Shown: positions 1,934-61,718 of the stretch, in pieces | Layout of the letters: every line of letters begins with the position of its first letter | Numbering within the stretch: the first letter of the stretch is position 1 | Assembly (NCBI GenBank): GCA_022703055.1 | Contig: JAKLEP010000002.1 | Span: forward strand, 160,480-224,479 | Reading direction: 5' to 3' | Origin: Candidatus Omnitrophota bacterium | GTDB lineage: Bacteria > Omnitrophota > Gorgyraeia > VGKH01 | Length of the DNA: 64,000 bases | Program-made: the position numbers and the translations under genes | The notes under the pieces: generated by a model | What the model was told of the DNA's origin: nothing | Seen by the model: the letters and a program-made list of their open reading frames with translations, nothing else | The model's database searches: none

Positions 1934-3941
<2,008 letters not shown>

Positions 3942-4964: not shown

Positions 4965-5028
4965 TTTACCTCACTTATAGAATAGAATCAGATTATATCA
5001 CAAATCTAATTTTTTGTGCAAGCTTTTT

Positions 5029-8915: not shown

Positions 8916-8946
8916 TGTTTTGAGTTTATATTGATTGAAAGGTGAG

Positions 8947-16814: not shown

Positions 16815-16819
16815 AAAAA

Positions 16820-19365: not shown

Positions 19366-19384
19366 ATTTTAATATTTCTTTCGC

Positions 19385-21455: not shown

Positions 21456-22689
21456 TTTTTCGCTCCATTATTTCTTCAAAAGCCCGAACTATATATTCCA
21501 AATCTTCCGTTTTAAGATACTGATGGGCCCCTATATAAAATCCATTCTCGCCGACAAATTCGGCGTTTGGCAGCTTGCCTTTATAAATTTTCTTGAGGTG
21601 GGAGTAAGCCGGCTGCTGCAGAGGAACGCATCCAAAAAGCGGCCTTGTCTCTACGCCTCTTTTCTCCAATTCCATCCTTAATGCTTTACGGCAGATAACT
21701 CTCGGTTTCCTAATTACCAACGGATATGCCAGATAGCTTACGCAGGAAGAATAATCGGGCAGCTGTAATATTCCGGAATATTTAGAAAGTTTTTCATTCA
21801 AATACTTAACGATCCTCTGGCGCTTGCTTATTATGTCATTAATCTTGCCTAATTGTGCCAGGGCTATAGCAGCTTGAAATTCCATTGTTTTAAAATTATA
21901 ACCTATTAAATCATGCAAAAACCGCGGATCAAAATCATCTGCCTTGCCATCATGGTATTTAAGATAGGGGCATATTCCTTTGCTTCGGGTGCATATTCTA
22001 CATTCGCATAACCTGCCATTAGTTTTGATTTTCTTTGAGAGGCGGTAAATATCGTAATGATTGGTAACGATTGCCCCCATTTCCCCCGCTTGGATATTAT
22101 GGGCGATGTAAAAGGAAAAAACACCTGCATCTGCCGCGGCACCGCATTTCTTGCCGCGATAAACTGACCCGTGAGCCTCCGAAGCATCATCCAAAACAAT
22201 CAAATTATATTTCTTGGCGATTGATTTTATCTTGTCTATCTGGACGGAAAAGCCCATTAAATCAACGGGAAGAATAATACTGTATTTGTTTTTATCTTTG
22301 GCTTTTATTAGGTGTCTTTCTACGGCCTCTGGGCTAATGCCAAAAGTAAAAGGATCTATATCTACGAATACCGGCTCAAATCCAGCTAGAACAATAGCGT
22401 GAATTACAGAGATATAAGTTAACGGCGAGGTAATAATCTTAGGCCGATTTTCTAATTTGTACAAATATTTTAGCGCGGTTAAAACAGTAATCAGGGCTGC
22501 TGTCCCGGAGCTGGTGGCAACACAATACTTTGCACCGATAAAATCCGCCCATTTCTTTTCAAATTCATAGGTTTTAGCGCCTTCTGTTATCCTCCCGGAA
22601 TCCAGTACCTCCAGCACATTCTTTCTTTCCTCAGGACCTATTTCCAGCCATCCCACAGATATTCTTCTCATATTTTTATTTCTTTTCAT
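21448..22689 (-). CDS. PMP/PLP-dependent sugar 3-dehydratase-like enzyme (E1/RfbH/ColD type) of the DegT family
   Basis: DegT-fold protein whose cofactor Lys position is His (SFYIAHNIQAGEMG, against SFYPTKNLGAFGDAG in the 11270..12376 paralog). It also carries a Cys cluster, GRLCECRICTRSKGIC, resembling the GRDCYCAPGCDNTC [2Fe-2S] motif of E1/RfbH. Start is set at ATG 22689 (TGATG overlap with the gmd stop). Confidence 0.65.
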   Translation of the reverse strand: MKRNKNMRRISVGWLEIGPEERKNVLEVLDSGRITEGAKTYEFEKKWADFIGAKYCVATSSGTAALITVLTALKYLYKLENRPKIITSPLTYISVIHAIVLAGFEPVFVDIDPFTFGISPEAVERHLIKAKDKNKYSIILPVDLMGFSVQIDKIKSIAKKYNLIVLDDASEAHGSVYRGKKCGAAADAGVFSFYIAHNIQAGEMGAIVTNHYDIYRLSKKIKTNGRLCECRICTRSKGICPYLKYHDGKADDFDPRFLHDLIGYNFKTMEFQAAIALAQLGKINDIISKRQRIVKYLNEKLSKYSGILQLPDYSSCVSYLAYPLVIRKPRVICRKALRMELEKRGVETRPLFGCVPLQQPAYSHLKKIYKGKLPNAEFVGENGFYIGAHQYLKTEDLEYIVRAFEEIMERKNG

Positions 22690-23732
22690 CAATCAACACT
22701 CCACCATTTCCTTGGAAATTTTTCTTTTAACATCTTGTCTCCTTCGCCGATCGGCTTAAGCCCTGCCGCGCGCATGTCTGCATCCACCATTATTTTAACC
22801 AGGTCGCTGAATTTGACTTTGGGTTGCCAGCCAAATGTCTTTTTAGCTTTGCTTGTATCCGCAATCAATTCTCCGACTTCAGTAGGACGAAAATATCTCG
22901 GGTCAATCTTTACGAATTTCTTGGAATCTAGGCCTGCGTAGGAAAACGCCTCATCAACAAATGCCTTCACCGAATGAGATTCTCCCGTGCCAAGCACAAA
23001 ATCATCCGGCTTGCCCTGCTGGAGGATTTGCCACATTGCTTCTACATATTCCGGAGCATAGCCCCAGTCTCTTTTTGCCTCCAAATTTCCCAAATAAAGA
23101 TAATCCTGTTTTTTAGCTAGGATTGCAGCGATCGCGCGTGTTATTTTACGGGTAACAAAAGTCTCGCCGCGCCTGGGAGATTCGTGATTAAATAATATTC
23201 CATTTGATGCAAATATCTTGTATCCTTCCCTGTAATTTTTTATCATCCAATAACCATAAACTTTAGCGCAGGCATAGGGGCTTCTCGGCTGGAATGGAGT
23301 ATTTTCATTTTGCGGCGGCTTGGACGAACCAAACATTTCGCTCGATGATGCCTGGTAAAATTTGATGTTGCTTGCGCTTCTTTTGATAGCTTCAAGGATT
23401 CTGGTCGCGCCTAAGGCGGTAATATTTCCGGTATATTCGGGGATATCAAAGCTAACTCTTACGTGGGACTGCGCTCCTAGATGATAAATCTCGTCCGGCT
23501 TGATATTATAAACTATATTGGAAACCTGTTCGGAATCGGAAAGGTCGCCGTAATGAAGAAAAAGTTTTGCTCCTGATTTATGGGGATCGATATAAATGTG
23601 GTTAATCCTCGCGGTATTGAAAGTGCTGGCTCGCCTGATAATCCCATGGACTTCATATCCTTTTGACAAAAGAAACTCTGCCAGATATGAACCATCCTGC
23701 CCAGTTATGCCGGTAATTAATGCTTTATTCAT
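22689..23732 (-). CDS. gmd: GDP-mannose 4,6-dehydratase
   Basis: [34 protein letters not shown] is the canonical Gmd N-terminus; YACAKVY catalytic motif; 347 aa. Confidence 0.95.
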
Positions 23733-47876: not shown

Positions 47877-49310
47877 TTACTGTACAAAACACCTACAGGA
47901 TTCGCATTCACTGCAATTAAGCCATGTGCTGCTTGTCTGAATCCAATAATAGTCATAGTTTTGAGCGGATGCGTATCCAGTACATGAAGTACCGACCTTC
48001 TGGGTACAATATGAAGTTGTGTAATTGAAACCTAATAACTTACAGAATTGCTGGCAATCATCGCCGCCGTTATCTCCTCTATAACCAACGATATCATATT
48101 CTCCGCCCGTTCCATCTCGTATATGAGGATTAGATAAATCGACATAAGCTATGCTGCCACTAAATCCTCTAGCGCAATTGGCATATGAGGCTCTTTCATC
48201 TTCGAGCGCAGTGTTGGTCTCGTTTACCCAGACACTTCTAGGAGGACACCAAGCAGGACAATCTGTTCCATCTGCTTTACATAATTTCTTATTATTCTCT
48301 TCTATTGTACCGGTAACATCCAATTTAACATTGGGAGTTGTGTTTCCGATACCCACATTACCACCGTTAATATATGAGGTACCTGCCGGATCAAGTTTAA
48401 TATTTGCCGACATGGTCGGGAATCCGCTACCGATATCAGCATAACTCTTGACAACATCTCCTAATGAAATAGAACCATCCAACCATAAACGATAATTAGA
48501 ACCATATTGGCCATCCGGGCCTAAATACATCATGGTGTATTTAGCGCCGTCATTGACATTCTCATGCGTCCAGCCGAATCCCCAGCCGCTGTTGTCGGCG
48601 ATCAATCTTGAATCGACAACATAAGGATAGATTGCGCCCAGGCGTCCTGATTTGACATAAGTAGTATCAAAAGCGCCAAGCGAAAGAAGGTTGGTTTCAT
48701 AGTTAGAGCCGCCAAGTTGCAATCTAGCCAAAGGACTTGCAGTCCCCACTCCTATTTTATTAGCACCCGGCAAAATTAGGTCTCCTGTTCCTGTCTTTAG
48801 ATACATCAACCAACCAATTTCATCAGGAGAATACCAACCAAAGGCATAATTGACTGATGGCTTGGACATGAACCAATATCTTAATGCAGAAGGAACTTCG
48901 AATTTTAGCTGGTCCATGCTCCTGGTAAGCACCAAGTTATCGGTGAACCGGCCTCCTCCTGTAACATCTAATTTATATGATGGACTGGTTGTTCCAACTC
49001 CCACATTAGAACCAGTCTGATAGACTACAGAATTACCAAGAGTGCTTGTGCCTGTAAATATAGGAAAGTAATTTGTAGTTCCGCTTCCGCCGATTCCTGA
49101 AGCAGCAGAAGTCTGCCAAGTGGCAAGACCGGTAGCATCTGAGGTAAGCACCTTACCGGCACCGGGAGAACCTCCTTTAATCGTTATCTGGCCGTTGACC
49201 GTGACACTTTGCGCGGTTATCGGGCCGTCGACGACTTGCAGTTCGGCGAATGCATTGACATAAAAACCTAAACCTACTACTACGGCTAGCACTATTAGTA
49301 ACTTTTTCAT
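47877..49310 (-). CDS. Secreted fibre-like protein, paralog 2 (variable Cys-rich C-terminal domain)
   Basis: Signal peptide MKKLLIVLAVVVGLGFYVNAFA, ITIKGGSPGAGKVLTSDATGLATWQ, a repeated (N/K)(V/I)G(V/I)G(T/N)(T/A)(S/T)P..(K/R)L(D/Q)(V/L) motif, and a C-terminal 140 aa with 13 Cys; 477 aa. Confidence 0.6.
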   Translation of the reverse strand: MKKLLIVLAVVVGLGFYVNAFAELQVVDGPITAQSVTVNGQITIKGGSPGAGKVLTSDATGLATWQTSAASGIGGSGTTNYFPIFTGTSTLGNSVVYQTGSNVGVGTTSPSYKLDVTGGGRFTDNLVLTRSMDQLKFEVPSALRYWFMSKPSVNYAFGWYSPDEIGWLMYLKTGTGDLILPGANKIGVGTASPLARLQLGGSNYETNLLSLGAFDTTYVKSGRLGAIYPYVVDSRLIADNSGWGFGWTHENVNDGAKYTMMYLGPDGQYGSNYRLWLDGSISLGDVVKSYADIGSGFPTMSANIKLDPAGTSYINGGNVGIGNTTPNVKLDVTGTIEENNKKLCKADGTDCPAWCPPRSVWVNETNTALEDERASYANCARGFSGSIAYVDLSNPHIRDGTGGEYDIVGYRGDNGGDDCQQFCKLLGFNYTTSYCTQKVGTSCTGYASAQNYDYYWIQTSSTWLNCSECESCRCFVQ

Positions 49311-49338
49311 TTTAGTACCTCCATATCTTTTTGCTTAA

Positions 49339-49367
49339 CTTATATCAAATTATTCTAATAATTGCAA
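49339..49367 (-). promoter_or_regulatory. Candidate internal sigma-70-like promoter upstream of paralog 2
   Basis: The minus strand reads TTGCAA, 17 nt, then TATAAG in the 99-nt gap between the paralogs. AT-rich context, so it could be fortuitous. Confidence 0.3.
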
Positions 49368-49409
49368 ATAATTATAAAGACGTTTTGTTTTGTTTTTATT
49401 TATCACCTT

Positions 49410-50870
49410 CTATTGCTTAGTTATCACATCATGATGATAAGCACAACTTGCCGTTTCTCCTCTGCATTGAGTTCCTGAACTATAATACCTTGTAAAATGG
49501 CAGGTTGAGCTAGTTGTAATTTGCCCCTGACAAGTCTCCCCTGGATTTATTCCGCAATAACAATAGTACGTATCATTGCTATTGCATGGGCTATTGCATT
49601 GATAATATTTTGTCATTATGATACTATCACCACTCTTAAGGACATAAGCTCCATTAGACTTGATATCACCATTTACATCAAGCTTAACAGTCGGGCTTGC
49701 TGTCCCTACACCGACATTAGTTGATGTTACTGTCAATGGAGCAGCACCACTACCGGCCTGAACATGCAGTTTCTGACTAGAACTATCCACTCTTAAAACT
49801 GCATCACCGGCTACAGCACTGGTAGAATATTGCCCAGATGCCGCAGCTATAGCTAATCTTGCTTCTGAAGCTGTACGGCCAAGTCCTATGTCCGTACGAC
49901 TTGTGCCGGCTCCGCTGAGCACCGACAATGCTTCAGCATCAGGACTTACTACTGTAAGTTTTTTACTGGGCGCGCTTGTTCCAATGCCTACATTACCTCC
50001 AGTAAAATATGAAGTACCGGCGGGGTCAAGCTTAACCGTCGGTGTCATAGTTGGGAATCCGGTTCCTATATCAGCATAGCTTTTAGCAATATCGCCCAAT
50101 GAAATAGCGCCATCTAACCATAAACGATAATTGGCACCAAATTGGCCATTCGGCCCTAAATACATCATTGAATACTTATCACCCGTAGTAACATTCTCAT
50201 GAGTCCATCCAAACCCCCAGCCGCTTTCATCAGCAATTAATCGTGTGTCTATGACATAGGGATAGATTGCGCCTAAGCGTCCTGCCTTGACATAAGTTGT
50301 ATCAAATCCACCAAGCAGGAGAAGATTATTTTCGTAGTTAGAGTTGCCTAGCTGTAGCTTTCCTAATGGACTGGTGTTACCAACACCGATATTATCGGCA
50401 AAATAATTGGCGGTCCCGCCGTAGCCCCAGCTAAAATATGAGCCAGTATACCAAAGGGCTTCAGCGTCATTAACTCTTAGGGCAACACCCGTTAATCCTT
50501 TATTAAGGTTGAGCGGACCGGCAATATCAAGTTTATAGGCTGGAGAAGTTGTGCCAATACCAACATTGGTTCCGCTCTGATAAACCGCAGAATTTCCTAT
50601 AGAAGTTGTACCGCTAAATATAGGAAAATAATTTGTAGTACCGCTTCCGCCAATACTGCCAGAGGAAGGCGACTGCCAAGTAGCAAGGCCGGTTGAATCC
50701 GAAGTAAGCACCTTGCCGCTACCGGGAGAACCTCCTTTAATCGTTATCTGGCCGTTGACCGTGACACTTGCCGCGGTTATCGGGCCGTCGACAACTTGCA
50801 GTTCGGCGAATGCATTTGCATAAAAACCTAAACCTACTATTACGGCTAGCACTATTAGTAACTTTTTCAT
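49410..50870 (-). CDS. Secreted fibre-like protein, paralog 1 (different Cys-rich C-terminal domain)
   Basis: Signal peptide MKKLLIVLAVIVGLGFYANAFA. The first roughly 60 aa are nearly identical to paralog 2, and it has the same repeated VGIGT.P..KL motif (4 copies). The C-terminal 70 aa contain 10 Cys; 486 aa. Confidence 0.6.
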   Translation of the reverse strand: MKKLLIVLAVIVGLGFYANAFAELQVVDGPITAASVTVNGQITIKGGSPGSGKVLTSDSTGLATWQSPSSGSIGGSGTTNYFPIFSGTTSIGNSAVYQSGTNVGIGTTSPAYKLDIAGPLNLNKGLTGVALRVNDAEALWYTGSYFSWGYGGTANYFADNIGVGNTSPLGKLQLGNSNYENNLLLLGGFDTTYVKAGRLGAIYPYVIDTRLIADESGWGFGWTHENVTTGDKYSMMYLGPNGQFGANYRLWLDGAISLGDIAKSYADIGTGFPTMTPTVKLDPAGTSYFTGGNVGIGTSAPSKKLTVVSPDAEALSVLSGAGTSRTDIGLGRTASEARLAIAAASGQYSTSAVAGDAVLRVDSSSQKLHVQAGSGAAPLTVTSTNVGVGTASPTVKLDVNGDIKSNGAYVLKSGDSIIMTKYYQCNSPCNSNDTYYCYCGINPGETCQGQITTSSTCHFTRYYSSGTQCRGETASCAYHHDVITKQ

Positions 50871-50904: not shown

Positions 50905-53900
50905 CTAATTTGGACCGCTTGAGCCAGCCTCATTAACCATCCTCATTACTTTGTTGTGGACAACTACATCGTCGGCTATATAGGTATGGTTAGGCTCAAC
51001 CTCCAAATTATATACGTCTACGATAGAATCTTTCGCTTCTATCTTAGTTATCTTCTTTAGTGCTAGCTGTGAATCATCTGAAACCATAATCTTGTCTCCG
51101 ACCTTCAAAGTAGAGGCCTCGACATATTCCTTGCCGTTATATATAGGGTGAATGCCAGTTACATTCAAGGCCCTGCCACCTTCAGTCTCTATGACAAAAT
51201 ATCCTTTCATCATAGGATGAGGGAAGGTTTTGGTTACTTCTGAAGCAACTGTCTTTCCTTCAGGAGTAACGCTTAAGACCTTATCACCAGTCAAGACTTT
51301 CTCAATGGCCTTGGATGTTCCGTCTGCCATAGCAATCTTAGTCCCTGGCAATAAGCATCCTCCGCCGCCTCCACCTGTGGAGTGACGGATAATGTTCGTA
51401 TTCACAAAAGTTGTCATACCAGTTCCAGATACATATACCGCATCAGATAAAGAATCTGTCGCTCTGTTGCGATAGATTTCTGTCCCGGAAATAGTCGTTG
51501 CCTTATTAGAGTTAATATAGATACCGCCGCCCTTACTTGTCGAGCCGTTAGCGACGTTATCTTCAATATCGCAGTTTTCAATGTTAACCGGCGCATTATC
51601 AACTACAATACCACCGCCGTTGCCGGATGTCAATCCGTAAGAGATACCAAAACCTCTAAAAGTAACAAGATTGGTCGCGGCTGCAAAATTGACCACCGGC
51701 GTGGTTAGCGCTTGGCTTTGGCCGCTGATAATTGTATCGTTTGGATTAGCAGATGTACTCTCAACGGTTAATGCCTTATTTCTATTGAAAGTGATCCTTT
51801 CATTATAGATTCCCGGAGCAGCGGTAATCCTGAAATTATTATCCAGGGATGCATAATTAAGCGCCTCTGTTATAGTATTGTAACATGCAACGCAAACTGA
51901 AGAAGCGTTATAGACCTTTACAGGATTGTTGCACCCGGTAACGTTAATATTGACCGTCGCTGTGTTGCTCCACAAAGGTGTAGTGCAGGCATTGCTAACC
52001 CTGTAAGTGAAACTATCAGCCCCTATGTATCCAGCTGTTGGTGTATAGGTGAAGCTACCATTAACAGACAAGGAAAGCGTACCATGCAAAGGATCGCTCA
52101 TTTTCTGCACGCTTCCAAAAGCCCAAGTAGGAGCTTCAGGATTAACATCGTTTATGACAACTCCATTAGAGAAGGTCACTGTTAAAGTGCTATTTTGTGT
52201 AGCGGTATAACTATCATTGACTGCCACTGGTGGATCATCGCAACGCTGGGAAATACTAAGCCTAACCAACGTCACATTACCTTGTGTTCCGCTACCGCAA
52301 TCGCTTACTGGCCTGTAGGTAAACGTATCTTCACCATACCAGTTAGCGCTCGGTACATAAGTAAACGAACCTGGGCCGTATGTATTCATTGTCAATGTTC
52401 CATGGCTAGGACCAGTTACTAAAACTGCTGATGCAGGTTCGCCTCCACCATTATTTGGATCGATATCATTATCCAGTAAGGTAGGCGCATACCCACCAAG
52501 AGACATATCTTCTGCCCCATAATAGTGATCTTCAACGCCTGTCGGAAGTTGGCAGCTATTGACAGTTAAATAAACTGTAGCTACGTTGCTGTATAAGTTA
52601 TTGCAACTGCTGCGCGCCCTGTAAGTGAAGCTATCACTACCGGTATAACCCGTTGTTGGCGTATAAGTGAATGAACCGTTGGTATTCAAAGTCACTGTTC
52701 CATGGGATGGGTCACTATACTTATAAGCAGTTAACGTAACTCCGCCATCAACGCTATAATCATTGGCTAATACACCGGGAGCGGCTACGGTATAAGCAGT
52801 ATTAATCATAACATCGCTGTAGGTATCATTCACTGCTACTGGGTTATCGCAGGCCTTAGCTACAGAGATGTTGCGGCTGACTGTATTGGAATTTACGCAT
52901 CCATCGGTTACTGTGAAGCTGACTGTGCGAGTGGCTGTCGATGGATCCTCCGAGGTATTCCTGTATCTTACTGAACGTAGCGCAAGTTGATAGTTGGCAA
53001 CTGTTGCGCTTCCGGATAGTGTCATGGTTCCAGTGGTTGAGTTCCAGCTACCGGTTATGCCGTTAGCTGTAGTGTATTCTAGAAGATCCTGGTTGCTAGT
53101 ATAATTGGCGGTAATCTGGACCGTGCCGCCAGTTAAATTCGTACTATCAGCATCTGTTACGGTTATGGTGCTAGAAATAACTGTCGCTGACTGGTTCTCG
53201 GTATAGCTTAAAGTACTGGTTTCAATATTAGCTAATACCGGAGCGTCACAGACAGATGCGATAGTAATGTTACGAGTTACTGTATTGGAATCCACACATC
53301 CATCATTAACCTTGAATGTGACTGTACGTGTGGCTGTCGATGGATTCTCCGAGGTATTCCTATATGTTACCGCGCGTAGCGCAAGTTGATAGTTGGCTAA
53401 TGTTGCGCTGCCGGTTAATGTCATGGTACCGGTGGTTGAGTTCCAGCTACCGGTTATGCCGCTGACGCCTGGGAATGCCAGGACATCTTGGCTACTGGCA
53501 TAATTGCTGGTAATCTGGACTGTACCCCCGGTTAAGTTGGTACTGTCTGTATCCGTTACTGTTATACTACCAGTAATCGCTGTAGCTGCTTGATTCTCAG
53601 TGTAAGCCAACGCAGCAGTCTCAATATTAGCTAAGACTGGAGGACTGCAAACCGTACCCACGTTGATATTACGTGTGGCTGTATTGGAATCTAACCCGCC
53701 ATCATTTACTTTGAAACTCACTGTGCGTTGCAAAGTTGATGGATTAGCGGAGGTATTCCTATATGTTACCGCGCGTAGCGCAAGTTGATAGTTGGCAACT
53801 GAAGAGCTGCCGGTTAATGTCATGGTACCGGTGGATGAGTTCCAGCTACCGGTTATGCCGCTGACGCCTGGGAATGCCAGGATATCTTCAGCGCTGGCAT

Positions 53901-56900
53901 AATTGCCGGTGATCTGGACTGTGCCGCCGGCCAAGTTAGTACTGTCAACATCTGTAACTGTGATAGTCGAAGTAATTGCTGTAGCTGCCTGGCCTTCATC
54001 ATAACTTAAAGCACTGGTCTCGATGTTAGCCAAGACTGGTGCATCAGGAACAGATGTTAAACTTATAGCTCTGCTGACCGTGTTAGAACTCACGCATCCA
54101 TCAGTTACTGTAAAGCTGACTGTTCGTTGCAGAGTTGATGGATTCTCCGAAGTATTCCTATATGTCACTGAGCGTAACGCGAGTTGATAGTTGGCTAATG
54201 TTGCGCTACCGGTTAATGTCATGGTACCGGTGGATGAGTTCCAGCTACCGGTTATGCCGCTGGCTGCGGTAAAGGCTAAGACATCTTCAGCGCTGGCATA
54301 ATTGCCGGTGATCTGGATTGTACCGCCGGTTAAATTGGCACTATCAACATCTGAAATAGTAATAGCCGAAGTGATAGCTGTAGCTGCTTGATTCTCAGTG
54401 TAAGCTAATGCGGAAGTCTCAATATTAGCTAATACTGGAGCATCACAAACAGATGTGATAGTAATGTTACGAGTTACTGTATTGGAATTCACACATCCAT
54501 CAGTTACTGTAAAGCTGACTGTTCGTTGCAGAGTTGATGGATTCTCCGAAGTATTCCTATATGTCACTGAGCGTAACGCAGTCTGATAATTAGCTAACGT
54601 TGCGCTACCGGTTAGTGTCATGGTACCGGTGGATGAATTCCAGCTACCGGTTATGCCGCTGACGCCTGGGAATGCTAAGACATCTTCAGCGCTGGCATAA
54701 TTGCCGGTGATCTGGACTGTGCCTCCGGTTAAGTTGGTGCTATCTGTATCTGTTACGGTTATAGCACCAGTAATTGCCGTAGCTGCCTGATTCTCGGTAT
54801 AAGCCAATGCTGAAGTTTCGATATTGGCTAATGCAGGGGCATTGCAGACAGGTGTTATAGTGATATTGCGTGTAACCGTGTTAGAATTCACGCATCCATC
54901 ATTCACTGTGAAACTTACTGTGCGTTGTAAAGTTGATGGGTTAGATGAAGTATTCCTATATGTTACCGCGCGTAGCGCAGCCTGATAGTTGGCTAATGTT
55001 GCGCTGCCGGTTAATGTCATGGTACCGGTGGATGAGTTCCAGCTACCGGTTATGCCGCTGACGCCTGGAAATGCCAGGACATCTTCAGCGCTGGCATAAT
55101 TGCCGGTGATCTGGACTGTGCCTCCGGTTAAGTTGGTGCTGTCAACATCTGTAACTGTGATAGCGCTGGTAATCGCTGTAGCTGCCTGGCCTTCAGTATA
55201 ACCTAAAGCACTGGTCTCGATGTTGGCTAAGACTGGTGCGTCGCAGACAGCTCCCACTGTGATGTTGCGTGTAACTGTATTAGAATCCACGCATCCATCA
55301 TTAACCTTGAATGTAACTGTACGCTGCAAGGTTGATGGATTATCCGAAGTATTCCTATATGTCACTGCGCGTAGCGCAGTCTGATAGGTAGCCAATGTTG
55401 CGCTGCCGGATAGTGTCATGGTTCCGGTGGATGAGTTCCAGCTACCGGTTATGCCGCTGACACCTGGGAATGCCAGGACATCTTCCGCGCTGGCATAATT
55501 GCCGGTGATCTGGACTGTGCCACCTGCTAAACTAGTACTATCAACATCGGAAATTGTTATATTGCTGGTAACCGCTGTGGCTGATTGATTCTCAGTGTAA
55601 GCCAATGCAGCAGTCTCAATATTAGCTAAGACTGGAGCATCGCAAACAGCTCCTATAGTTATACCACGAGATACTGTATTAGAAGATAAAGCACCATCAG
55701 TTACTGTAAAGCTGACTGTTCGTTGCAGAGTTGATGGATTCTCCGAAGTATTCCTATATGTTACCGCGCGTAGCGCAAGTTGATAGTTGGCAACTGTTGC
55801 GCTGCCGGTTAATGTCATGGTACCGGTGGTTGAGTTCCAGCTACCGGTTATGCCGCTGACGCCTGGAAATGCCAGGACATCTTGGCTGCTAGCATAATTG
55901 CCGGTGATTTGGACTGTACCGCCTGCCAAATTGGTGCTGTCGGCATCTGTAACCGTTATGGTACCAGTGATTGCCGTAGCTGCCTGATTCTCAGTGTAAG
56001 CCAATGCAGCGGTCTCAATATTAGCTAATACTGGAGCATTACCAACTGCACCCACGTTTATATTACGAGTTGCTATGTTAGAATTCAAAGCACCATCATT
56101 TACCCTAAAGCTTACTGTGCGCTGCAAAGTTGATGGTGTGGCTGAAGTATTCCTGTAAGTTACTGTACGTAACGCAGCCTGATAGTTGGCAACTGAAGAA
56201 CTGCCGGTTAGTGTCATAGTTCCGGTAGATGAATTCCAGCTACCGGTTATACCGCTGGCAGCTGTGAATTCAAGAAGATCCTCACCGCTGGCATAATTGC
56301 CAGTAATCTGGACTGTACCGCTAGCTAAGTTAGCGCTATCAACATCTGTGGCGGTCATTGTCGTGGTAATAGCTATTGCCGGCTGGCCTTCCGTGTAGCT
56401 TAAAGCGCTGGTCTCAATGTTGGCCAAGACTGGCGCATCAGGTACCGGTTGAACGGTAATCGATGTGGTAGCCGTATTGCTAATTCTACTGGTACTATCA
56501 ATAATATTATAGGTGAAACTATCTCCGCCGTTGTAGTCAGCCGCTGGAGAATATCTGATGGTAAGATTCCCAGTATTTATAGTTGCGGTTCCGTGAGAAG
56601 GCGCACTAACAATACTGTTAATGGTTATAGTATCTCCAGTATCGGGATCGTAGTCATTATTCATAACCGAGAGATTTGTAGGCGTATCTTCATTAACTGA
56701 TAAGCTGTCATTGACCGCTACTGGCGCATCTGGCATGGCATTAAGATTAACCGTTACTGTGGCTGAATTGCTTATCAAATGTGAAGTACTGGAATCTTGA
56801 ATTCTATAGGTAAAGGTATCTGTGGTCCCGTCAAAGTCAGGGTTGGGAACATAATGCAAAGCATCTATAATCTGAGTAACTGTGCCATTTGCCGGTTGAG

Positions 56901-59496
56901 TAAAATCGTAAATGGCAATAGTGTCTCCTGAGTCGGGATCGTAATCAACTCCAAAACCATTATCTAACAAAACAGAAATATCTATAGGGACATCTTCGTC
57001 GGTTGTCGCGGTATCATCTCTTGCCACCGGATTATCAGGAACCGGACTAACTACTAACATTACTTGCGCAAAACCACTGCAAGCACCATAAGTATCGCAT
57101 GCCCTGTAAGTAAAGTAATCCGTGCTGCTGAAATTAGGATTTGGCGTATAAGTAAAAGAACCATCAGCGCCAAACGTGTTTAAGGTTCCGTAACTTGGGC
57201 CAGTTGCACCCGTTCTATCTGCATGTATTGGGTCTCCGTCCGGATCAGAATCATCACTCAATACTCCGGGGGCAGCAACTGTTCTAGGTGTATCCTCAGT
57301 AAGAAAATAACTGTTGTTATTTGCCACAGGAGGATTGTTAGCAGTCACAGTAATCGCAACGTTTAATTTGGCGCTATGCAATCCGTAATAATCAGTAGCG
57401 ATAAAAGTAACGGTGTAAGAACCGGTCGCTGATGGTGTCCAGCTAAAGCTTCCGGTATCTGTGGCATCGTTAAAATTAAAAGTTGCTCCACTGGGTAAAT
57501 TAAATGCACTGATATCAGTCACGTTCAAAGGAGCAACGCCAGTATCTACGCCCGTGACGGTGAAAGTTAAAGTTTCGCCGACACGTTTTGAAAAAGGCCC
57601 AGCTGGGCTGGAACTGATAGTCGGTATACCTCTATCTGCTCTAAGATAAGTACCTGTATTCTTTAAGTTTTGTCTAAATTTCGGCCAAGGCATAGTTGTA
57701 GACGGAGTGGATAAATCCCATATATGGGCGTTTCCGCTCAAGTCTGCAATAGCGGCTCTAAACAAAGTTGTACTCCCCAATGCCCCAACGCTTGGTGAAG
57801 ATAATTCTATTGTCCCCATTCCCGTCTTTGGGAAACCATCAACTGGATCAGCTACGCCATAAGGTGTATCTTGATCATCATGATGATAACCATAGAGATT
57901 GCCATCCCAGCATCCTATGAGCACTTCAACGTCGCCGTCATTGTCAATATCCACCAATGCTGGAGATGAATCATATGCGGTCGACATAGTAACACTGGTC
58001 CTGTCTACCGGCCATCCAACGACTGTAGTACCGTCATGATGCAAAGCATAGACTCCGCCATCAGATGTGCCTGCGACCAATTCAAGATCTTGATTATATT
58101 CTTCAAGGCCTGTTGTGCCATAAAGCGCTAAATTTCCTATAGCAACTGAAGAGGTTGATGCAGCGCTGGTGCCTCCTAATCTCTTAGGCCAACCTAAACC
58201 TGTACCACTCGGCCAGGCTTCAACATAAGTAGCATCTTGATTCAAAGCGTACATATGCGCCGTGCTTGTTACGACAGCGACTTCCAGAATTCCATCGCCA
58301 TCAACATCCGCTAACGCAGGAGAAGAGTTAAAATATCCCTGGCCAGCGGGACGGTCAAAGAATCTACCGTCTGAATTTAGATAACCTACAAAATTTGTCC
58401 CATTATATCTCCATGCGCATAATCTAGTGGAATGTGCGGTTATGATTTCAGGGTAACCGGTTCCGCCAATATTTCCAACCGCAGGAGAAGAGTTGACGAT
58501 ACTGGGATAACCAAAAATAGAACCAATACGTGCCCCGGCATAATTCCAAATGTTGACACCGCCGTTGGTGCCTACTGCGATGATCTCAAGATTGGTATCG
58601 TTGTTGACGTCTTCAAGCACTACAGAGTTATCGATGGAATCATTTGCGGCGCCAGTACTATCCAAGGCCTGAATTGGGAATCCAGTGACAGGATCGGCTA
58701 AGCCATCGCTATTGAGATCCTGCGCATGCCAGACATAGACTTTGCCGTTGGTATTTCCAACCACTACTTCCATGATACTGCCGTCTTTATCCAAATCGGC
58801 TATCGCAGGAGTACCTTTAACAGAAATACCAGCTTCTGTCTGGGCGAATAAACCATTGGATTGAGATGGGAAGAAGCTTCCCCATGTCCCACCGCTATAA
58901 TTCCAAGCATAGATATCGCCGTTATCATCGGCAAAAATCAGCTCTCCTTCAGGATCGGTATCTAAATTGACAATGACTGGCGAAGAATGAATAGGATAAA
59001 CCGGAGATCCGATACTCAATAAACTCATCCCGCCCGGCAAATCTGGTGTTTCATCCGGAAGGCTCCCCTTATAAAGATATGGCTCTCCTGTCTCTTTAAT
59101 CCTGAACCCTATATTGGTGCCTTTGATGTCAGCCTGGCCTAAAAACTCAGGGTTATCCCCTGCTTTGTAATCGACATAGGCTTCATTGAGGCTTACGCCC
59201 AAGGCGGTGTTTATCTGGCTTATGCCGTTAGCAAAGAAATATTTACTGTGGCTGGGGAAATAATCAGCTATTTGGCCTGTCTGAATCTCTGCAAGGCCGG
59301 CCTTGGCCATATCGATTTTCTCTTCTAATGTCGGCTCACTACTACCTCCGCCGCCGCCCCCGTCGCCATCTGCAATCATAAAATTCATCTCGGCTGAGAC
59401 GGGAGCTAAGGCTAAACTCCAACACATCAAGATAACTAGTGGCCGGATTAAGTAAACATGAAACCAGCTTTTTCTATCTTTGATTAGCTTTTTCAT
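50905..59496 (-). CDS. Giant secreted multi-domain adhesin-like protein (2863 aa): FG-GAP/VCBS-type beta-propeller, Ig/cadherin-like domains, 9 x 133-aa repeats, parallel beta-helix, C-terminal Hint/BIL domain
   Basis: AAGGAG SD and an N-terminal hydrophobic signal-like segment. D-x-D/N-x-D-G loops (DLDKDG, DVNNDTNLE, DVDGDGILE, DIDNDGDVE) and WPKFRQNLKNTG fit a propeller. Repeated P-V-A-x-(N/D)-D...SFTYTP units are cadherin/Ig-like. GGGI..D/GGGIYINS beta-helix rungs precede GGGGGGCLLPGT...VVVHN. Confidence 0.85.
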   Translation of the reverse strand: MKKLIKDRKSWFHVYLIRPLVILMCWSLALAPVSAEMNFMIADGDGGGGGGSSEPTLEEKIDMAKAGLAEIQTGQIADYFPSHSKYFFANGISQINTALGVSLNEAYVDYKAGDNPEFLGQADIKGTNIGFRIKETGEPYLYKGSLPDETPDLPGGMSLLSIGSPVYPIHSSPVIVNLDTDPEGELIFADDNGDIYAWNYSGGTWGSFFPSQSNGLFAQTEAGISVKGTPAIADLDKDGSIMEVVVGNTNGKVYVWHAQDLNSDGLADPVTGFPIQALDSTGAANDSIDNSVVLEDVNNDTNLEIIAVGTNGGVNIWNYAGARIGSIFGYPSIVNSSPAVGNIGGTGYPEIITAHSTRLCAWRYNGTNFVGYLNSDGRFFDRPAGQGYFNSSPALADVDGDGILEVAVVTSTAHMYALNQDATYVEAWPSGTGLGWPKRLGGTSAASTSSVAIGNLALYGTTGLEEYNQDLELVAGTSDGGVYALHHDGTTVVGWPVDRTSVTMSTAYDSSPALVDIDNDGDVEVLIGCWDGNLYGYHHDDQDTPYGVADPVDGFPKTGMGTIELSSPSVGALGSTTLFRAAIADLSGNAHIWDLSTPSTTMPWPKFRQNLKNTGTYLRADRGIPTISSSPAGPFSKRVGETLTFTVTGVDTGVAPLNVTDISAFNLPSGATFNFNDATDTGSFSWTPSATGSYTVTFIATDYYGLHSAKLNVAITVTANNPPVANNNSYFLTEDTPRTVAAPGVLSDDSDPDGDPIHADRTGATGPSYGTLNTFGADGSFTYTPNPNFSSTDYFTYRACDTYGACSGFAQVMLVVSPVPDNPVARDDTATTDEDVPIDISVLLDNGFGVDYDPDSGDTIAIYDFTQPANGTVTQIIDALHYVPNPDFDGTTDTFTYRIQDSSTSHLISNSATVTVNLNAMPDAPVAVNDSLSVNEDTPTNLSVMNNDYDPDTGDTITINSIVSAPSHGTATINTGNLTIRYSPAADYNGGDSFTYNIIDSTSRISNTATTSITVQPVPDAPVLANIETSALSYTEGQPAIAITTTMTATDVDSANLASGTVQITGNYASGEDLLEFTAASGITGSWNSSTGTMTLTGSSSVANYQAALRTVTYRNTSATPSTLQRTVSFRVNDGALNSNIATRNINVGAVGNAPVLANIETAALAYTENQAATAITGTITVTDADSTNLAGGTVQITGNYASSQDVLAFPGVSGITGSWNSTTGTMTLTGSATVANYQLALRAVTYRNTSENPSTLQRTVSFTVTDGALSSNTVSRGITIGAVCDAPVLANIETAALAYTENQSATAVTSNITISDVDSTSLAGGTVQITGNYASAEDVLAFPGVSGITGSWNSSTGTMTLSGSATLATYQTALRAVTYRNTSDNPSTLQRTVTFKVNDGCVDSNTVTRNITVGAVCDAPVLANIETSALGYTEGQAATAITSAITVTDVDSTNLTGGTVQITGNYASAEDVLAFPGVSGITGSWNSSTGTMTLTGSATLANYQAALRAVTYRNTSSNPSTLQRTVSFTVNDGCVNSNTVTRNITITPVCNAPALANIETSALAYTENQAATAITGAITVTDTDSTNLTGGTVQITGNYASAEDVLAFPGVSGITGSWNSSTGTMTLTGSATLANYQTALRSVTYRNTSENPSTLQRTVSFTVTDGCVNSNTVTRNITITSVCDAPVLANIETSALAYTENQAATAITSAITISDVDSANLTGGTIQITGNYASAEDVLAFTAASGITGSWNSSTGTMTLTGSATLANYQLALRSVTYRNTSENPSTLQRTVSFTVTDGCVSSNTVSRAISLTSVPDAPVLANIETSALSYDEGQAATAITSTITVTDVDSTNLAGGTVQITGNYASAEDILAFPGVSGITGSWNSSTGTMTLTGSSSVANYQLALRAVTYRNTSANPSTLQRTVSFKVNDGGLDSNTATRNINVGTVCSPPVLANIETAALAYTENQAATAITGSITVTDTDSTNLTGGTVQITSNYASSQDVLAFPGVSGITGSWNSTTGTMTLTGSATLANYQLALRAVTYRNTSENPSTATRTVTFKVNDGCVDSNTVTRNITIASVCDAPVLANIETSTLSYTENQSATVISSTITVTDADSTNLTGGTVQITANYTSNQDLLEYTTANGITGSWNSTTGTMTLSGSATVANYQLALRSVRYRNTSEDPSTATRTVSFTVTDGCVNSNTVSRNISVAKACDNPVAVNDTYSDVMINTAYTVAAPGVLANDYSVDGGVTLTAYKYSDPSHGTVTLNTNGSFTYTPTTGYTGSDSFTYRARSSCNNLYSNVATVYLTVNSCQLPTGVEDHYYGAEDMSLGGYAPTLLDNDIDPNNGGGEPASAVLVTGPSHGTLTMNTYGPGSFTYVPSANWYGEDTFTYRPVSDCGSGTQGNVTLVRLSISQRCDDPPVAVNDSYTATQNSTLTVTFSNGVVINDVNPEAPTWAFGSVQKMSDPLHGTLSLSVNGSFTYTPTAGYIGADSFTYRVSNACTTPLWSNTATVNINVTGCNNPVKVYNASSVCVACYNTITEALNYASLDNNFRITAAPGIYNERITFNRNKALTVESTSANPNDTIISGQSQALTTPVVNFAAATNLVTFRGFGISYGLTSGNGGGIVVDNAPVNIENCDIEDNVANGSTSKGGGIYINSNKATTISGTEIYRNRATDSLSDAVYVSGTGMTTFVNTNIIRHSTGGGGGGCLLPGTKIAMADGTSKAIEKVLTGDKVLSVTPEGKTVASEVTKTFPHPMMKGYFVIETEGGRALNVTGIHPIYNGKEYVEASTLKVGDKIMVSDDSQLALKKITKIEAKDSIVDVYNLEVEPNHTYIADDVVVHNKVMRMVNEAGSSGPN
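50953..51357 (-). other. Hint (Hedgehog/intein) domain, bacterial intein-like (BIL) type, aa 2714-2848 of the giant protein
   Basis: CLLPGTKIAMADGT (block A, Cys1), NVTGIHPIY (block B, T-x-x-H), VYNLEVEPNHTYIADDVVVHN (blocks F/G ending in HN). It is followed by Lys and only 15 further residues. Confidence 0.8.
51376..51927 (-). other. Parallel beta-helix (pectate-lyase-like) region of the giant protein, aa 2524-2707
   Basis: Periodic rungs: ITAAPGIYNERITF, LTVES...DTIISG, GGGIVVDNAPVNIENCDIEDN, GGGIYINSNKATTISGTEIYRN. Confidence 0.55.
52849..56436 (-). repeat. Nine head-to-tail copies of a 399-bp (133-aa) coding repeat inside the giant gene (aa 1021-2217)
   Basis: Each unit begins APVLANIETxAL(A/S)YTE(N/G)Q and ends ...SNT(V/A)(T/S)RNI(T/S/N)xxx(V/A)C(D/N/S). 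Long nucleotide strings, for example gttccagctaccggttatgccgct and ggtaccggtggatgagtt, recur at 399-bp spacing. Confidence 0.9.
57652..59004 (-). other. FG-GAP/VCBS-like beta-propeller region of the giant protein, about aa 165-615
   Basis: Recurrent hydrophobic-strand plus Asp/Asn-rich Ca-binding-like loops (ADLDKDG, EDVNNDTNLE, ADVDGDGILE, VDIDNDGDVE) alternating with aromatic-Gly turns (GKVYVW, GGVNIW, GNLYGY, NAHIWD). Confidence 0.6.
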
Positions 59497-59535: not shown

Positions 59536-59949
59536 CTAATATTTACATCCTACCGGCGAAGAACAATAAGGTTCGCCATCCTTAACGCTCAAGTAACCTT
59601 CGACTTGAATAGTCATGGCTGGAGTCTTCTTATAAACAGCTTTCCCAAGATATGCTGGACTAGCCGAAGGATTATCTGCAACACTATAATCCCAACTTCT
59701 TTCATTCAAATCTAAGAAAAGATCAGTGTTGATTGCATTTATATCTGTAGTATATAAATGATAAGTGCCATTTCTTAAGTTATAAACTTTTTGCGCTGCA
59801 TATATGGCCCGAAGGCTGCTTTTTGCTTCGCTGACATCGGCCCTTACAACAACATCTTTATATACTGGCACTGCGATACCGACAGAAACTCCCAGTATCA
59901 CAACAACCACTATCAACTCCATCAATGTTATTGCATTTCTCTTTTTCAT
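59536..59949 (-). CDS. Type IV pilin / pseudopilin-like protein (prepilin-type N-terminal domain)
   Basis: MKKRNA/ITLMELIVVVVILGVSVGIAVP: a basic leader, Glu at +5 and a hydrophobic alpha1-N helix. The C-terminal CSSPVGC is a possible disulfide loop. Start is set at Met14 of the track ORF (ATG 59949); the track start 59988 would add an MILIIMNEMKEKI extension. Confidence 0.7.
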   Translation of the reverse strand: MKKRNAITLMELIVVVVILGVSVGIAVPVYKDVVVRADVSEAKSSLRAIYAAQKVYNLRNGTYHLYTTDINAINTDLFLDLNERSWDYSVADNPSASPAYLGKAVYKKTPAMTIQVEGYLSVKDGEPYCSSPVGCKY

Positions 59950-59990
59950 TATCTTTTCTTTCATTTCATTCATTATTATTAATATCATTC

Positions 59991-60030
59991 AACAAAAAAT
60001 CCAGACCATAGCTTTCAAGCGTACGTCTGG
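59991..60030 (-). terminator. Intrinsic terminator forming the riboswitch expression platform
   Basis: The minus strand reads CCAGACGTACGCTTGAAAGCTATGGTCTGG (outer 6-bp CCAGAC/GTCTGG stem plus inner TA and GC pairs) followed directly by ATTTTTTGTT. It lies between the aptamer and the pilin start. Confidence 0.6.
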
Positions 60031-60054
60031 ATTTCTCCATTCAAAACTTAACCT

Positions 60055-60146
60055 CGTTATCGGTACGCTCGGCTGCCATGGAATTACTTCTTTAGGCCCG
60101 AAACTTTGCGCCCCCGTCTTTCGACGGGTTTGCCCCCGCCATAAAC
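60055..60146 (-). promoter_or_regulatory. c-di-GMP-I (GEMM-I) riboswitch aptamer
   Basis: The minus strand reads GTTTATGGCGGGGGCAAACCCGTCGAAAGACGGGGGCGCAAAGTTTCGGGCCTAAAGAAGTAATTCCATGGCAGCCGAGCGTACCGATAACG. It matches the Vc2-type core GGGCAAACC-N4-GAAA-N4-GGGACGCAAAGCC..CGGCCTAAA....TACCGA, including the P2 GNRA hairpin CCGTC-GAAA-GACGG. It forms a GC-rich island in an AT-rich 476-nt gap. Confidence 0.85.
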
Positions 60147-60377
60147 TATGGCGGACCCCTGTCGGGGTTTTCGGATATTTCTACCCTTTACTAATGAATC
60201 ACTTTTTCTACTAAAAGATTACCATATATTCTCTGTTTTACAAGAGGGAAGGCTGCCTTTGAGAAAACGTTTTCTTATCTTCGCTTAAACCTATGTATAT
60301 CAGCATGTTAAGACATAATACCAACAAAAATAATTAAAAAAATTAGCAATTTATATACAAAAAAATCGGTTTTAGAC

Positions 60378-60406
60378 AAATAAAAAACCGCCTGTTTTTA
60401 GGCGGT
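60378..60406 (-). terminator. Rho-independent terminator downstream of hflX
   Basis: The minus strand reads ACCGCCT-AAAAAC-AGGCGGT (perfect 7-bp stem) followed by TTTTTTATTT, 59 nt after the hflX stop. Confidence 0.8.
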
Positions 60407-60464
60407 CGAGAAATATAAGGATATGTTTTTTCTACTTAAATCTTATCAAGGACTTAGCGATAAA

Positions 60465-61718
60465 TCATACCTGCTTATGATAAGTCGATAATTTTTTAGC
60501 CGTAACTATCGGCAAACTAGCTTTTATATTTGCTCCATCGGCATTATAATCTATACTGTATACTTCACCCTCGCGATAGATTTGATCAACCAAATCCATG
60601 CGGTTTATAGGAATAAATAAATCTATCACTGTAATCAAAGCTGAAAGTTCGGTTTCGATTTTCTCAAGAAGCTGCTCAATATTTTCTTTCTTCAATGCCG
60701 ATACGGCCACGGGATTAATGAAGTCTCTCTTCAGCCTCTCAATCCAGCCCCTGTCTTCAAGCTTGTCGATTTTGTTTAAAACCGTAACGATTGGTTTATC
60801 GTCAGCGCCAAGCTCTTTTAATACTTCATAAACTGCCTTGTTATGTTCATAACATCTGGCATGGCTTACATCCAAAACATGCAACAATAGATCGGATTCC
60901 TTAACCTCTTCCAAAGTCGCCTTGAATGCCTCGATTAGATGGTGCGGCAGGTGGCTCAAAAATCCGACGGTATCAGAAATGACTATCTTCTGATGGTTAG
61001 AAAGAGCGAGGCTTCTTGACAATGAATCAAGCGTAGTAAATAGACTGTCTCTTACGTGTTGCTCCGAACCGGTAAGCGTGTTTAAAAGCGTGGATTTTCC
61101 AGCATTTGTATAACCTACTAAAGCCACCGATGGGATATGTTTCTCTTTTCGTTTCTTTCTGGTGTTCTCGCGATGTTTCGTTAAATCTGATAAGTCTTTT
61201 CTTAATTTATCGATGCGTTTTCTGATGCGCCTGCGGTCAACTTCAAGCTTCTGCTCGCCTGGGCCTCTGGTCCCAATCCCACCGCCAAGCCTAGAAAGAA
61301 TGATACCTTTACCGGTAAGCCGCGGCAATAAGTATTCAAGCTGAGCAAGCTCTACCTGGATTTTTCCTTCCTGGCTTTTGGCATGCTGGGCAAAGATATC
61401 AAGAATAAGCTGGGTTCTGTCAATAATCTTAATTTTGATTATCTCTTCTAGATTTCTCTGCTGTGTGCCGCTAATATCGTCGTCAAAGATAACCGTATCG
61501 GCTGAATTCCCTTCGGCAATCATGGCGATTTCTTCCGCTTTGCCTTTGCCGATGAACATCCCCGGAGTCGGCTCCTGCCGCATACAAATAACCTTCTCAG
61601 TGACCCCAGCGCCTGCGGTATGGGTCAATTCTTCGAGTTCGGCAAGCGAATCCTCGGGGTTTAGCTTCTTAAAATGCTTGTCTTTAAAATCTACGCTGAC
61701 TAATATTGCCTTTTCCAT
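60465..61718 (-). CDS. hflX: GTPase HflX
   Basis: HflX N-terminal domain (LAELEELTHTAGA...), then G-domain motifs GYTNAGKST, DTVGF, NKID; 417 aa. Confidence 0.93.
   Translation of the reverse strand: MEKAILVSVDFKDKHFKKLNPEDSLAELEELTHTAGAGVTEKVICMRQEPTPGMFIGKGKAEEIAMIAEGNSADTVIFDDDISGTQQRNLEEIIKIKIIDRTQLILDIFAQHAKSQEGKIQVELAQLEYLLPRLTGKGIILSRLGGGIGTRGPGEQKLEVDRRRIRKRIDKLRKDLSDLTKHRENTRKKRKEKHIPSVALVGYTNAGKSTLLNTLTGSEQHVRDSLFTTLDSLSRSLALSNHQKIVISDTVGFLSHLPHHLIEAFKATLEEVKESDLLLHVLDVSHARCYEHNKAVYEVLKELGADDKPIVTVLNKIDKLEDRGWIERLKRDFINPVAVSALKKENIEQLLEKIETELSALITVIDLFIPINRMDLVDQIYREGEVYSIDYNADGANIKASLPIVTAKKLSTYHKQV

Follow-up and report, generated by a model that had tools for sequence, protein, structure and literature searches.

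A class-I c-di-GMP riboswitch, predicted to be an OFF switch, in the leader of a pilin and adhesin gene pair of an uncultured Candidatus Omnitrophota bacterium

Background

Three riboswitches with the GEMM-I fold, that of the class-I riboswitches for cyclic di-guanosine monophosphate (c-di-GMP), are among the closest described relatives of the element reported here: Vc2, from the tfoY leader of Vibrio cholerae (structures 3IRW/3MXH), Cd1, from the flgB flagellar operon of Clostridioides difficile, and the pilM RNA of Geobacter. In the Cd1 OFF switch the folded aptamer and the terminator can coexist, and an antiterminator, only transiently stable, takes the 3' strand of the aptamer and unfolds the pocket, whereas in the ON type represented by pilM the aptamer and the terminator are mutually exclusive (Landgraf et al., PMC9262584). 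In Vc2, G20 reads the Hoogsteen face of Gα of the ligand and C92 makes a Watson-Crick pair with Gβ; the GEMM-Ib RNAs that sense cyclic GMP-AMP (cGAMP) carry an A at Vc2 position 20 (A14 in Gs1761), and wild-type Vc2 with G20 binds cGAMP at about 10 µM against picomolar c-di-GMP, i.e. about a million-fold more weakly (PMC6140456). The P1a helix of Vc2 contributes G14-C93 and C13-G94 directly under the pair of C92 with the ligand (PMC11705072). Here we analyse a stretch of 64,000 nucleotides (nt) from a Candidatus Omnitrophota bacterium, hereafter the window (assembly GCA_022703055.1, contig JAKLEP010000002.1, positions 160,480 to 224,479; all coordinates below are window positions), and describe a c-di-GMP-I aptamer in the 5' leader of a pilin-like gene that is followed by the gene of a giant secreted adhesin.

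Omnitrophota are uncultured and mostly ultra-small bacteria, in which large surface proteins and pilus-like systems are suspected of a part in attachment or predation. Two main genomic studies of the phylum cover its giant open reading frames (ORFs), secretion-system and pilus genes, and make no mention of riboswitches or c-di-GMP.

Results

When the 4,227 families of Rfam 15 were run against the whole window with cmscan, RF01051 (c-di-GMP-I) was the sole family at its gathering score in the 64 kb, with a match on the minus strand at 60144..60059 that scored 66.8 bits (E = 7e-11), almost twice the gathering score of 35. The alignment spans model positions 1-87 of 87 without truncation and with no non-canonical pair flagged (the NC line is empty), and the E-value becomes 6.2e-13 when the 571-nt gap alone is scanned with permissive filters. 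No second RNA family had a meaningful score in that gap at E <= 10, the remainder being noise, which rules out a second known RNA upstream of the core. The original prediction had placed a GEMM-I aptamer in a GC-rich block within the AT-rich gap between hflX and the pilin-like gene, with an RF01051 search as its check, and it is borne out on each of these points: GC content reaches a maximum of 0.575 at 60080-60159 and is 0.20-0.34 on both sides, the quoted minus-strand sequence is present exactly at 60146..60055, and the listed motifs (GCAAAC, the P2 hairpin CCCGUC-GAAA-GACGGG, GCGCAAAG, GGGCCUAAAG and UACCGA) are all found both in that sequence and in the RF01051 alignment. Its figure of 476 nt for the gap holds if the pilin ORF starts at 59988, but conservation favours a start at 59973 or 59949.

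From the RF01051 alignment, P1b consists of G60133-C60108 and C60132-G60109 (GC/GC), P2 with its GAAA tetraloop occupies 60128-60113, and P3, with a tetraloop-receptor-like CCUAAAG/CAUGG, occupies 60105-60065, all on the minus strand. The adjacent pair of hairpins linked by the GCAAAC ... ACGCAAAG core that c-di-GMP-I requires is present, and so are the type 1 features, a GNRA tetraloop on hairpin 1 and its receptor in hairpin 2. The conserved promoter, the aptamer, the terminator and the start codon follow one another on the minus strand, so that the element is in the sense orientation of a 5' leader. All features of the class that can be computed are found, the closing helix P1a being a putative one. 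The GC-rich block is a genuine class-I c-di-GMP riboswitch aptamer in a 5' leader of an uncultured Candidatus Omnitrophota, and its identity is established computationally, as are its conservation, the terminator and the complementarity described below.

The same arrangement is found in related loci. Pilin homologues 74, 50 and 44% identical to the window protein were traced to their contigs, and a full-length RF01051 match of 61-66 bits lies at the same position upstream of the pilin orthologues in loci L006, L007 and L008; across the orthologous loci L001-L004 and L006-L008 the scores are 61-67 bits, and L009 carries a 5'-truncated copy. The order hflX, leader, pilin and giant cadherin protein is kept in L001-L004, L007, L008 and L014, with the exception that L008 has an extra GH2_C+Hint gene between hflX and the leader. 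Over the stretch that runs from the palindrome described below, through the promoter, to the U-tract of the terminator, L007 and L008 share 89% identity with the window. For hflX the DNA identity is 79%, falling to 53% when third codon positions are taken by themselves, and for the pilin protein the identity is 44-50%; the leader is therefore under strong purifying selection. No riboswitch was found at the pilin paralogues of operons of the type II secretion system or type IV pilus type (T2SS/T4P; L018, L019 and L021), at L017, where no adhesin follows the pilin gene, or, for GEMM-I, at the distant pilin homologues P0006, P0011, P0013 and P0015 (T2SS/T4P operons, or loci without an adhesin). 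Since these loci have no riboswitch, the association is limited to pilin genes that come with the adhesin. Searching with residues 1-420 of the giant protein gave generic FG-GAP propeller proteins only, and no further orthologous loci.

One could still ask if the block is a chance resemblance or a decayed relic without a regulatory role, the real feature being the plus-strand ORF of 136 residues at 59804..60214. All that favours this is that the ORF exists in a mechanical list. It overlaps, in antisense, both the conserved structured RNA and the beginning of the pilin coding sequence, has no Pfam match, and is called in none of four independent public annotations of the identical locus, so the earlier view that it is spurious stands. 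Against a relic are the full-length RF01051 match at E = 7e-11, the sense-strand location of the element, with a conserved promoter before it, the gene after it and a terminator of its own, the 89% conservation of the leader while synonymous sites are near saturation, and the covariation of a leader hairpin (H3, below). We regard this explanation as effectively refuted.

In the public annotation of L008, the pilin gene call (P0004, 5001-5543) begins inside the riboswitch aptamer (4936-5021), giving the protein a spurious N-terminal extension of 34 residues (MAAERTDNEIQFSNGEIQTYALALWSGFFVDEVL...) that is translated aptamer and terminator sequence.

The expression platform consists of an intrinsic terminator at 59994..60037 (minus strand), with a 13-bp stem GAGAAAUCCAGAC/GUCUGGAUUUUUU and a fold of -19.7 kcal/mol, conserved in all orthologues. 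Its stem is followed by a U6 tract, then a G and further U's, about 20 nt ahead of the start codon, and it begins 22 nt after the aptamer, with no overlap between the two. The 18-nt interior (60024-60007) is poorly paired within the hairpin (4x4 internal loop); a simple terminator scan with a loop limit of 8 nt missed the site. This interior is complementary to the 3' strand of the aptamer, the switching strand at 60063..60081 (minus strand), which consists of CCAUGGC (60081-60075) and CGAGCGUAC (60071-60063): GUACGCUUG (60024-60016) pairs with CGAGCGUAC, including the equivalents of A91 and C92, and GCUAUGG (60012-60006) pairs with CCAUGGC, for 16 pairs in total. The duplex has an energy of -24.4 kcal/mol against -10.5 ± 2.8 for shuffled interiors, none of 2000 shuffles being as good, and its energies are similar in L007, L008, L014 and L015. 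Because the two helices cross with zero-length linkers, their topology suggests that the antiterminator and the terminator stem would be mutually exclusive.

We also folded the transcript that ends at 60006, the decision window in which the terminator interior has been made and its 3' arm has not. Here the minimum free energy (MFE) structure is the antiterminator, which is better than the enforced aptamer by 10.1 kcal/mol, while the MFE of the full-length transcript is P3 plus the terminator. In the decision windows of L007, L008 and L014 the antiterminator is better by 12.2, 10.4 and 8.9 kcal/mol, respectively, and by 6.7 kcal/mol in the divergent L011, whose terminator interior has another sequence (AUCGGACGCCGG) and yet finds its partner in that strand of the aptamer (CCGAGCGUACCGAU). 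When the antiterminator folds, GUUUCGG, the 5' strand that P3 gives up, is paired to the conserved CCGAAAAC (60174-60167).

The leader upstream of the core begins behind a terminator of hflX at 60386..60407 (minus strand; eight pairs and then a T-run in a terminator-like scan), which is conserved in the orthologues with stem changes and shields the riboswitch leader from read-through. The conserved stretch starts shortly before a candidate promoter at 60216..60243 (minus strand), whose elements are invariant in the orthologues: a -35 TTGTAA at 60243-60238, a 16-nt spacer and an extended -10 TGgTAATCT at 60224-60216. The consensus promoter scan skipped this site on account of its weak -10, and we infer the assignment from its sequence and conservation, which would probably put the transcription start at about 60212-60209. 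Some 20 nt before the -35, at 60262..60275, stands a perfect 14-bp palindrome, AGAAAACGTTTTCT, that is invariant in four of four aligned orthologous leaders, the intergenic DNA further upstream being divergent. It occurs once in the window, a count that by itself is not above chance, and can be put forward as a candidate protein operator; if it is a transcription-factor site, the operon would be under protein control in addition to the riboswitch.

Three hairpins are predicted between the putative transcription start and the core. The last of them, H3 (CCGCCAUA-GUU-UAUGGCGG, 60136..60154, minus strand), ends one nucleotide (G60135) before the G20 equivalent. It has compensatory double changes in five of its nine pairs, with 100% of the cells paired across the orthologues, against no double changes in slid controls; its arms read CCUCCGACG/CGUCGGAGG in L007 and CUCCGAUG/CGUCGGAG in L008. 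The "unpaired 5' flank" of the Rfam model, which aligned to UUAUGGCGGGG, is actually the 3' arm of H3. Before it stands H2 (CCCC-GACA-GGGG, 60156..60167, minus strand), seen in predicted folds and invariant within the clade. In L011 both H2 and H3 are replaced by longer hairpins of other sequence, the one at the place of H2 reading UCCUCC...GGAGGA. The first hairpin, H1 (GGGUA-GAAA-UAUCC, 60173..60186, minus strand), also comes from predicted folds and has moderate support: 96% of its cells are paired in the orthologues and one pair shows a one-sided change from G·U to A-U, while in L014 the helix forms in another register.

The helix P1a can be drawn from a 5' strand UAUCCG (60172..60177, minus strand), pairing with CGAUA (60062-60058) as G60172-C60062, C60173-G60061, U60175-A60060, A60176-U60059 and U60177-A60058, with C60174 bulged and J1/2 AAAA following at 60171-60168. 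The strand that carries it, AUAUCCGAAAA, is conserved in the clade of the window and in the distant Omnitrophota locus L011, and P1a is without covariation. In a Clostridia aptamer with the same 3' half (L013) the same motif directly adjoins the core, UUAUCCGAAAGGGCAAAC; in the window it is separated from G20 by H2 and H3. On balance we favour an aptamer that would span 60177..60058, about 33 nt further upstream than the Rfam match, with H2 and H3 as insertions in J1/2. As H1 overlaps the 5' strand of P1a, the two would compete in the modelled folds. Two other long-range pairings were rejected. The helix AUUCA (60199-60195)/UGAAU (60043-60039) of the MFE folds is not conserved in L007 or L008, and an alternative "P1", predicted in L014 and L015, in which GUCGG of the 3' arm of H3 pairs with CCGAU, was discarded because H3 itself covaries, because the register of this pairing is not conserved and because it would consume C92.

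Some orthologues are elaborated further. In L014/L010, L015 and L011 a two-hairpin insertion is found at the equivalents of C44/G45, between the "GGC" after P2 and the "GC" of P1b and adjoining the binding pocket. Its length is 82 nt in both L014 and L015 but 51 nt in L011, and it lies on the minus strand at 998-1079 in L010/L014, at about 808-889 in L015 (an estimated, not a computed, position) and at about 135-185 in L011. The L014/L010 and L015 loci come from lake metagenomes with the same synteny. RF01051 fails to report L010 even at E <= 0.01, and its 38-bit alignment to L011 is wrong, with part of the insertion drawn into the model. Such copies may amount to a structural variant of the class that has yet to be modelled. 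The window copy has no insertion at C44/G45, so the insertion is dispensable for the role of the RNA.

A few further matches came up in these loci. The plant microRNA family MIR9563 matches L010 at 3598-3723 below threshold (43.6 bits, gathering score 90). The matched segment is a long, AT-rich inverted repeat built from units resembling CTAAA, and the match is almost certainly an artefact of low complexity. Of two loci from the 20-mer genome scan, the Methylobacter locus L012 has no Rfam match and was taken as chance, and L013, from a metagenome-assembled genome (MAG) of Clostridia, is an unrelated locus used only as the canonical comparison for the 5' flank. L013 has two GEMM-I riboswitches 2.3 kb apart (519-602 and 2822-2962). 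The second has a terminator whose 5' arm, GGCAGCCGAGCUACCGAG, nearly copies the aptamer's own 3' strand, GACAGCCGAGCGUACCGAU, which suggests a strand-swap platform and led Rfam to report an "aptamer" of 141 nt; this 141-nt RF01051 match in L013, considered as an insertion of the Omnitrophota type, was rejected as such, being a duplicated 3' half inside the terminator.

As to the ligand, the nucleotide known in the class as A47 intercalates and contacts the ligand. Its equivalent in the window is A60107, the first A of the GCAAAG junction, and the RF01051 alignment likewise gives C60063, the first C of the tail UACCGAU, as the equivalent of C92, and G60134 (model position 11), just 5' of the G-C pair of P1b, as that of G20. 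The original prediction had argued for c-di-GMP from a G kept at this specificity position, which agrees with the alignment: the window and every orthologue have G there. Since the equivalents of G20, A47 and C92 are all canonical, c-di-GMP and not cGAMP would be the expected ligand. An A at the G20 equivalent, the mark of GEMM-Ib, was found neither in the window nor in any orthologue, and the whole-Rfam scan gave no match to c-di-GMP-II (RF01786) at its gathering score in the window or at E <= 10 in the gap; membership of GEMM-Ib and of class II is excluded.

A GEMM-I fold could nevertheless serve another ligand, 3'3'-cGAMP or an unknown one, as in the c-di-GMP-I-GGC and UAU variant groups, and GEMM-I relatives with altered specificity do exist (PMC6140456). 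The J1/2 region with H2 and H3 is unusual, GGG replaces the "AAa" consensus before G20 and its G's belong to the covarying H3, and the orthologues tolerate an insertion of 51-82 nt next to the pocket. Against this, the specificity position holds G and not A, A47 and C92 are canonical, a G20 aptamer such as Vc2 has only micromolar affinity for cGAMP (PMC6140456), and RF01051 outscored the overlapping members of its clan, two of which were suppressed as lower-scoring. We find a change of ligand improbable, and continue with c-di-GMP.

All genes of the window are on the minus strand. In the direction of transcription the order is a radical-SAM MiaB-like gene, a TPR/SPOR gene, miaA, hflX (60465-61718), the hflX terminator and the riboswitch leader, and then the pilin-like gene, the gene of a 2,863-residue protein, two paralogous genes of secreted proteins, a 588-nt gap with strong promoter-like sites, and hrcA-grpE-dnaK-dnaJ. 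An identical HflX protein is encoded on contigs of the Candidatus Omnitrophota MAG GCA_028686955.1 and of several metagenomes. The pilin-like gene (59536..59973, start 59973 or 59949) encodes a prepilin N-terminal methylation motif, ..KKRNA|ITLMELIVVVVILG; the protein matches Pfam N_methyl at 22.9 bits (cutoff 21.2), matches ComP_DUS and Pilin_GH weakly, and is named by NCBI as a Candidatus Omnitrophota prepilin-type protein.

The adhesin gene follows 39 nt past the pilin gene (50905..59496), identified from its ORF and Pfam matches as encoding a secreted surface protein. The 2,863 residues comprise a signal peptide, FG-GAP repeats, seven bacterial cadherin-like/Big_9 domains, about ten further repeats of about 100 residues and a C-terminal PT-HINT domain (Cadherin_4, 2.1e-75; Big_9, 3.1e-73; PT-HINT, 2.1e-13; FG-GAP_3). 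At the C-terminus (50905-51400) a Gly-rich linker leads into the PT-HINT/Hint autoprocessing domain, GGGGGGC/LLPG...VVHNK, with only about 20 residues past it and hence no toxin domain. A separate GH2_C+Hint gene stands between hflX and the pilin gene in L008 (2714-4630) and L017 (391-2337).

The two paralogous genes (47877..50870) encode secreted proteins of 486 and 477 residues that are 65% identical over 332 residues, have repeated NVGIGTTSPxxKLDV motifs and Cys-rich C-termini, and find no Pfam match. Gaps of 34 and 99 nt separate them from their upstream genes, and there is no terminator-like site between 47200 and 51000; they are possibly the distal part of the transcription unit controlled by the riboswitch. 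Elsewhere in the window, at 7830-22692, lies a long co-directional run of sugar-nucleotide and glycosyltransferase genes (MGDG_synth/GT28, GT2, GT4/GT1, GT9 heptosyltransferase, DegT aminotransferases, epimerases and ManC), which presumably serves the synthesis of lipopolysaccharide (LPS) or a surface polysaccharide.

Discussion

The riboswitch itself is a canonical, high-scoring member of a well-studied class, and what is new is its host and gene context; the structural elaborations are minor and may earn the label of a variant once tested. A course of events can be proposed from the folding analysis. Without ligand, the terminator interior (60024..60006) would, once transcribed, pair with the 3' strand of the aptamer (60081..60063), which holds the C92 equivalent, and the released 5' strand of P3 would pair with CCGAAAAC at 60174..60167. 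The terminator stem would then be blocked and RNA polymerase would read through to the pilin and adhesin genes. With c-di-GMP bound, P1a, P1b, P2 and P3 would be locked and the 3' strand unavailable, such that the terminator could form and transcription would stop. We think it likely that c-di-GMP represses the pilin-adhesin operon in this manner, by promoting termination, because the architecture matches that of the Cd1 OFF switch: the terminator is separate from the aptamer and compatible with it, and the antiterminator uses the 3' strand of the aptamer.

The same riboswitch could also be an ON switch, in which c-di-GMP would favour read-through or translation and induce the pilin and the adhesin. 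The known direction of control gives this reading its precedents, since the riboswitches before cbpA of Bacillus thuringiensis and before adhesin and pilin genes of C. difficile, pilA1 among the latter, are ON switches. It would fit the paradigm of a "sessile lifestyle" at high c-di-GMP, in which adhesin and pilin genes behind such riboswitches are often induced; folding programs cannot model the tertiary structure that the ligand induces, and H1 and the pairing of CCGAAAAC with GUUUCGG show that the leader has further alternative pairings. What speaks against it is that the terminator does not overlap the aptamer, so both can coexist, that the only strong alternative pairing removes the 3' strand of the aptamer and blocks the terminator, that no pairing was found by which the folded aptamer would prevent the terminator, and that the layout is of the Cd1 OFF type and not of the pilM ON type (PMC9262584). 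We consider the ON switch unlikely, and return to termination promoted by c-di-GMP.

Several points weigh against that preferred reading. Ligand binding and the direction of control, like the extent of the operon, are inferred, the first two from homology and nearest-neighbour folding, a method that ignores tertiary structure, the energy of the ligand and kinetics. The platform is almost invariant within the clade, so there is no true covariation of the antiterminator, and the complementarity in L011 is barely above that of shuffled sequences (102 of 2000). The G's that replace two conserved adenines before G20 could give an affinity or specificity different from that of Vc2. No c-di-GMP synthases were found among the 20 window ORFs scanned, which are sugar, LPS and housekeeping genes only, with no GGDEF, EAL or PilZ domains; the remaining genome was not searched for them. 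Lastly, an OFF switch on an adhesin and pilin operon runs against the usual pattern, in which high c-di-GMP promotes adhesion; in B. thuringiensis, for instance, the collagen-binding surface protein CbpA is encoded behind a c-di-GMP-responsive riboswitch (PMC7423583).

More tentatively, and with some doubt on our part, it can be hypothesized that the GEMM-I RNAs of Omnitrophota form an elaborated sub-lineage, with two J1/2 hairpins in all copies and, in some orthologues, a further two-hairpin module of 51-82 nt, that acts as an OFF switch, low c-di-GMP activating the pilin-adhesin genes. If this is true, it would be the first regulatory handle on the large surface proteins of Omnitrophota, it would invert the rule that c-di-GMP promotes adhesion, and it would concern a pilin and giant-adhesin module used by ultra-small, possibly host-attached bacteria. 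An RNA sensor before the operon of a pilin and a 2,863-residue adhesin leads to the prediction that expression responds to c-di-GMP, probably negatively, which can be examined in vitro, with no culture of the organism needed, and also in metatranscriptomes, as read-through versus termination at about 59994. The hairpin-decorated variants also expose a weakness of the Rfam model, which missed one orthologue entirely; this is relevant to riboswitch censuses in candidate phyla.

Compared with Vc2, the window RNA has the same aptamer fold, with GCAAAC, GCAAAG and the 3' tail ACCGAU, a GAAA tetraloop on the first hairpin and its receptor in the second, and the same nucleotides at G20, A47 and C92; the P1a that can be drawn puts its top G-C pair under C92, as G14-C93 does in Vc2. 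It differs in the extra hairpins H2 and H3 of J1/2, in lacking the conserved A's next to G20, and in its platform, a transcription terminator here and repression of translation through P1 formation in Vc2 (PMC11705072). With Cd1 it shares a complete downstream terminator compatible with the folded aptamer, an antiterminator made of the 3' strand of the aptamer and the 5' part or interior of the terminator, which destroys the pocket, and the terminator as ground state of the full-length RNA (PMC9262584). Cd1 serves flagella in a Firmicute, and the window a pilin-like protein and a giant adhesin in Omnitrophota; in the window the partner of the antiterminator lies inside the terminator loop, and the switching is a predicted one. 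Like the Geobacter pilM GEMM-Ib RNA, the window RNA has a GEMM-I fold upstream of pilus-related genes and acts, by prediction, through transcription termination (PMC9262584), but pilM has A20, senses 3'3'-cGAMP and has mutually exclusive aptamer and terminator (ON), whereas the window has G20 and a separate terminator. Closest in gene content are the Firmicutes cases, cbpA of B. thuringiensis and CD2831/CD3246 and pilA1 of C. difficile, in which a c-di-GMP riboswitch has direct control of a gene for a large surface adhesin or a type IV pilin; these are generally known as ON switches, those of C. difficile being of class II, whereas the riboswitch of the window is of class I and is predicted to be an OFF switch.

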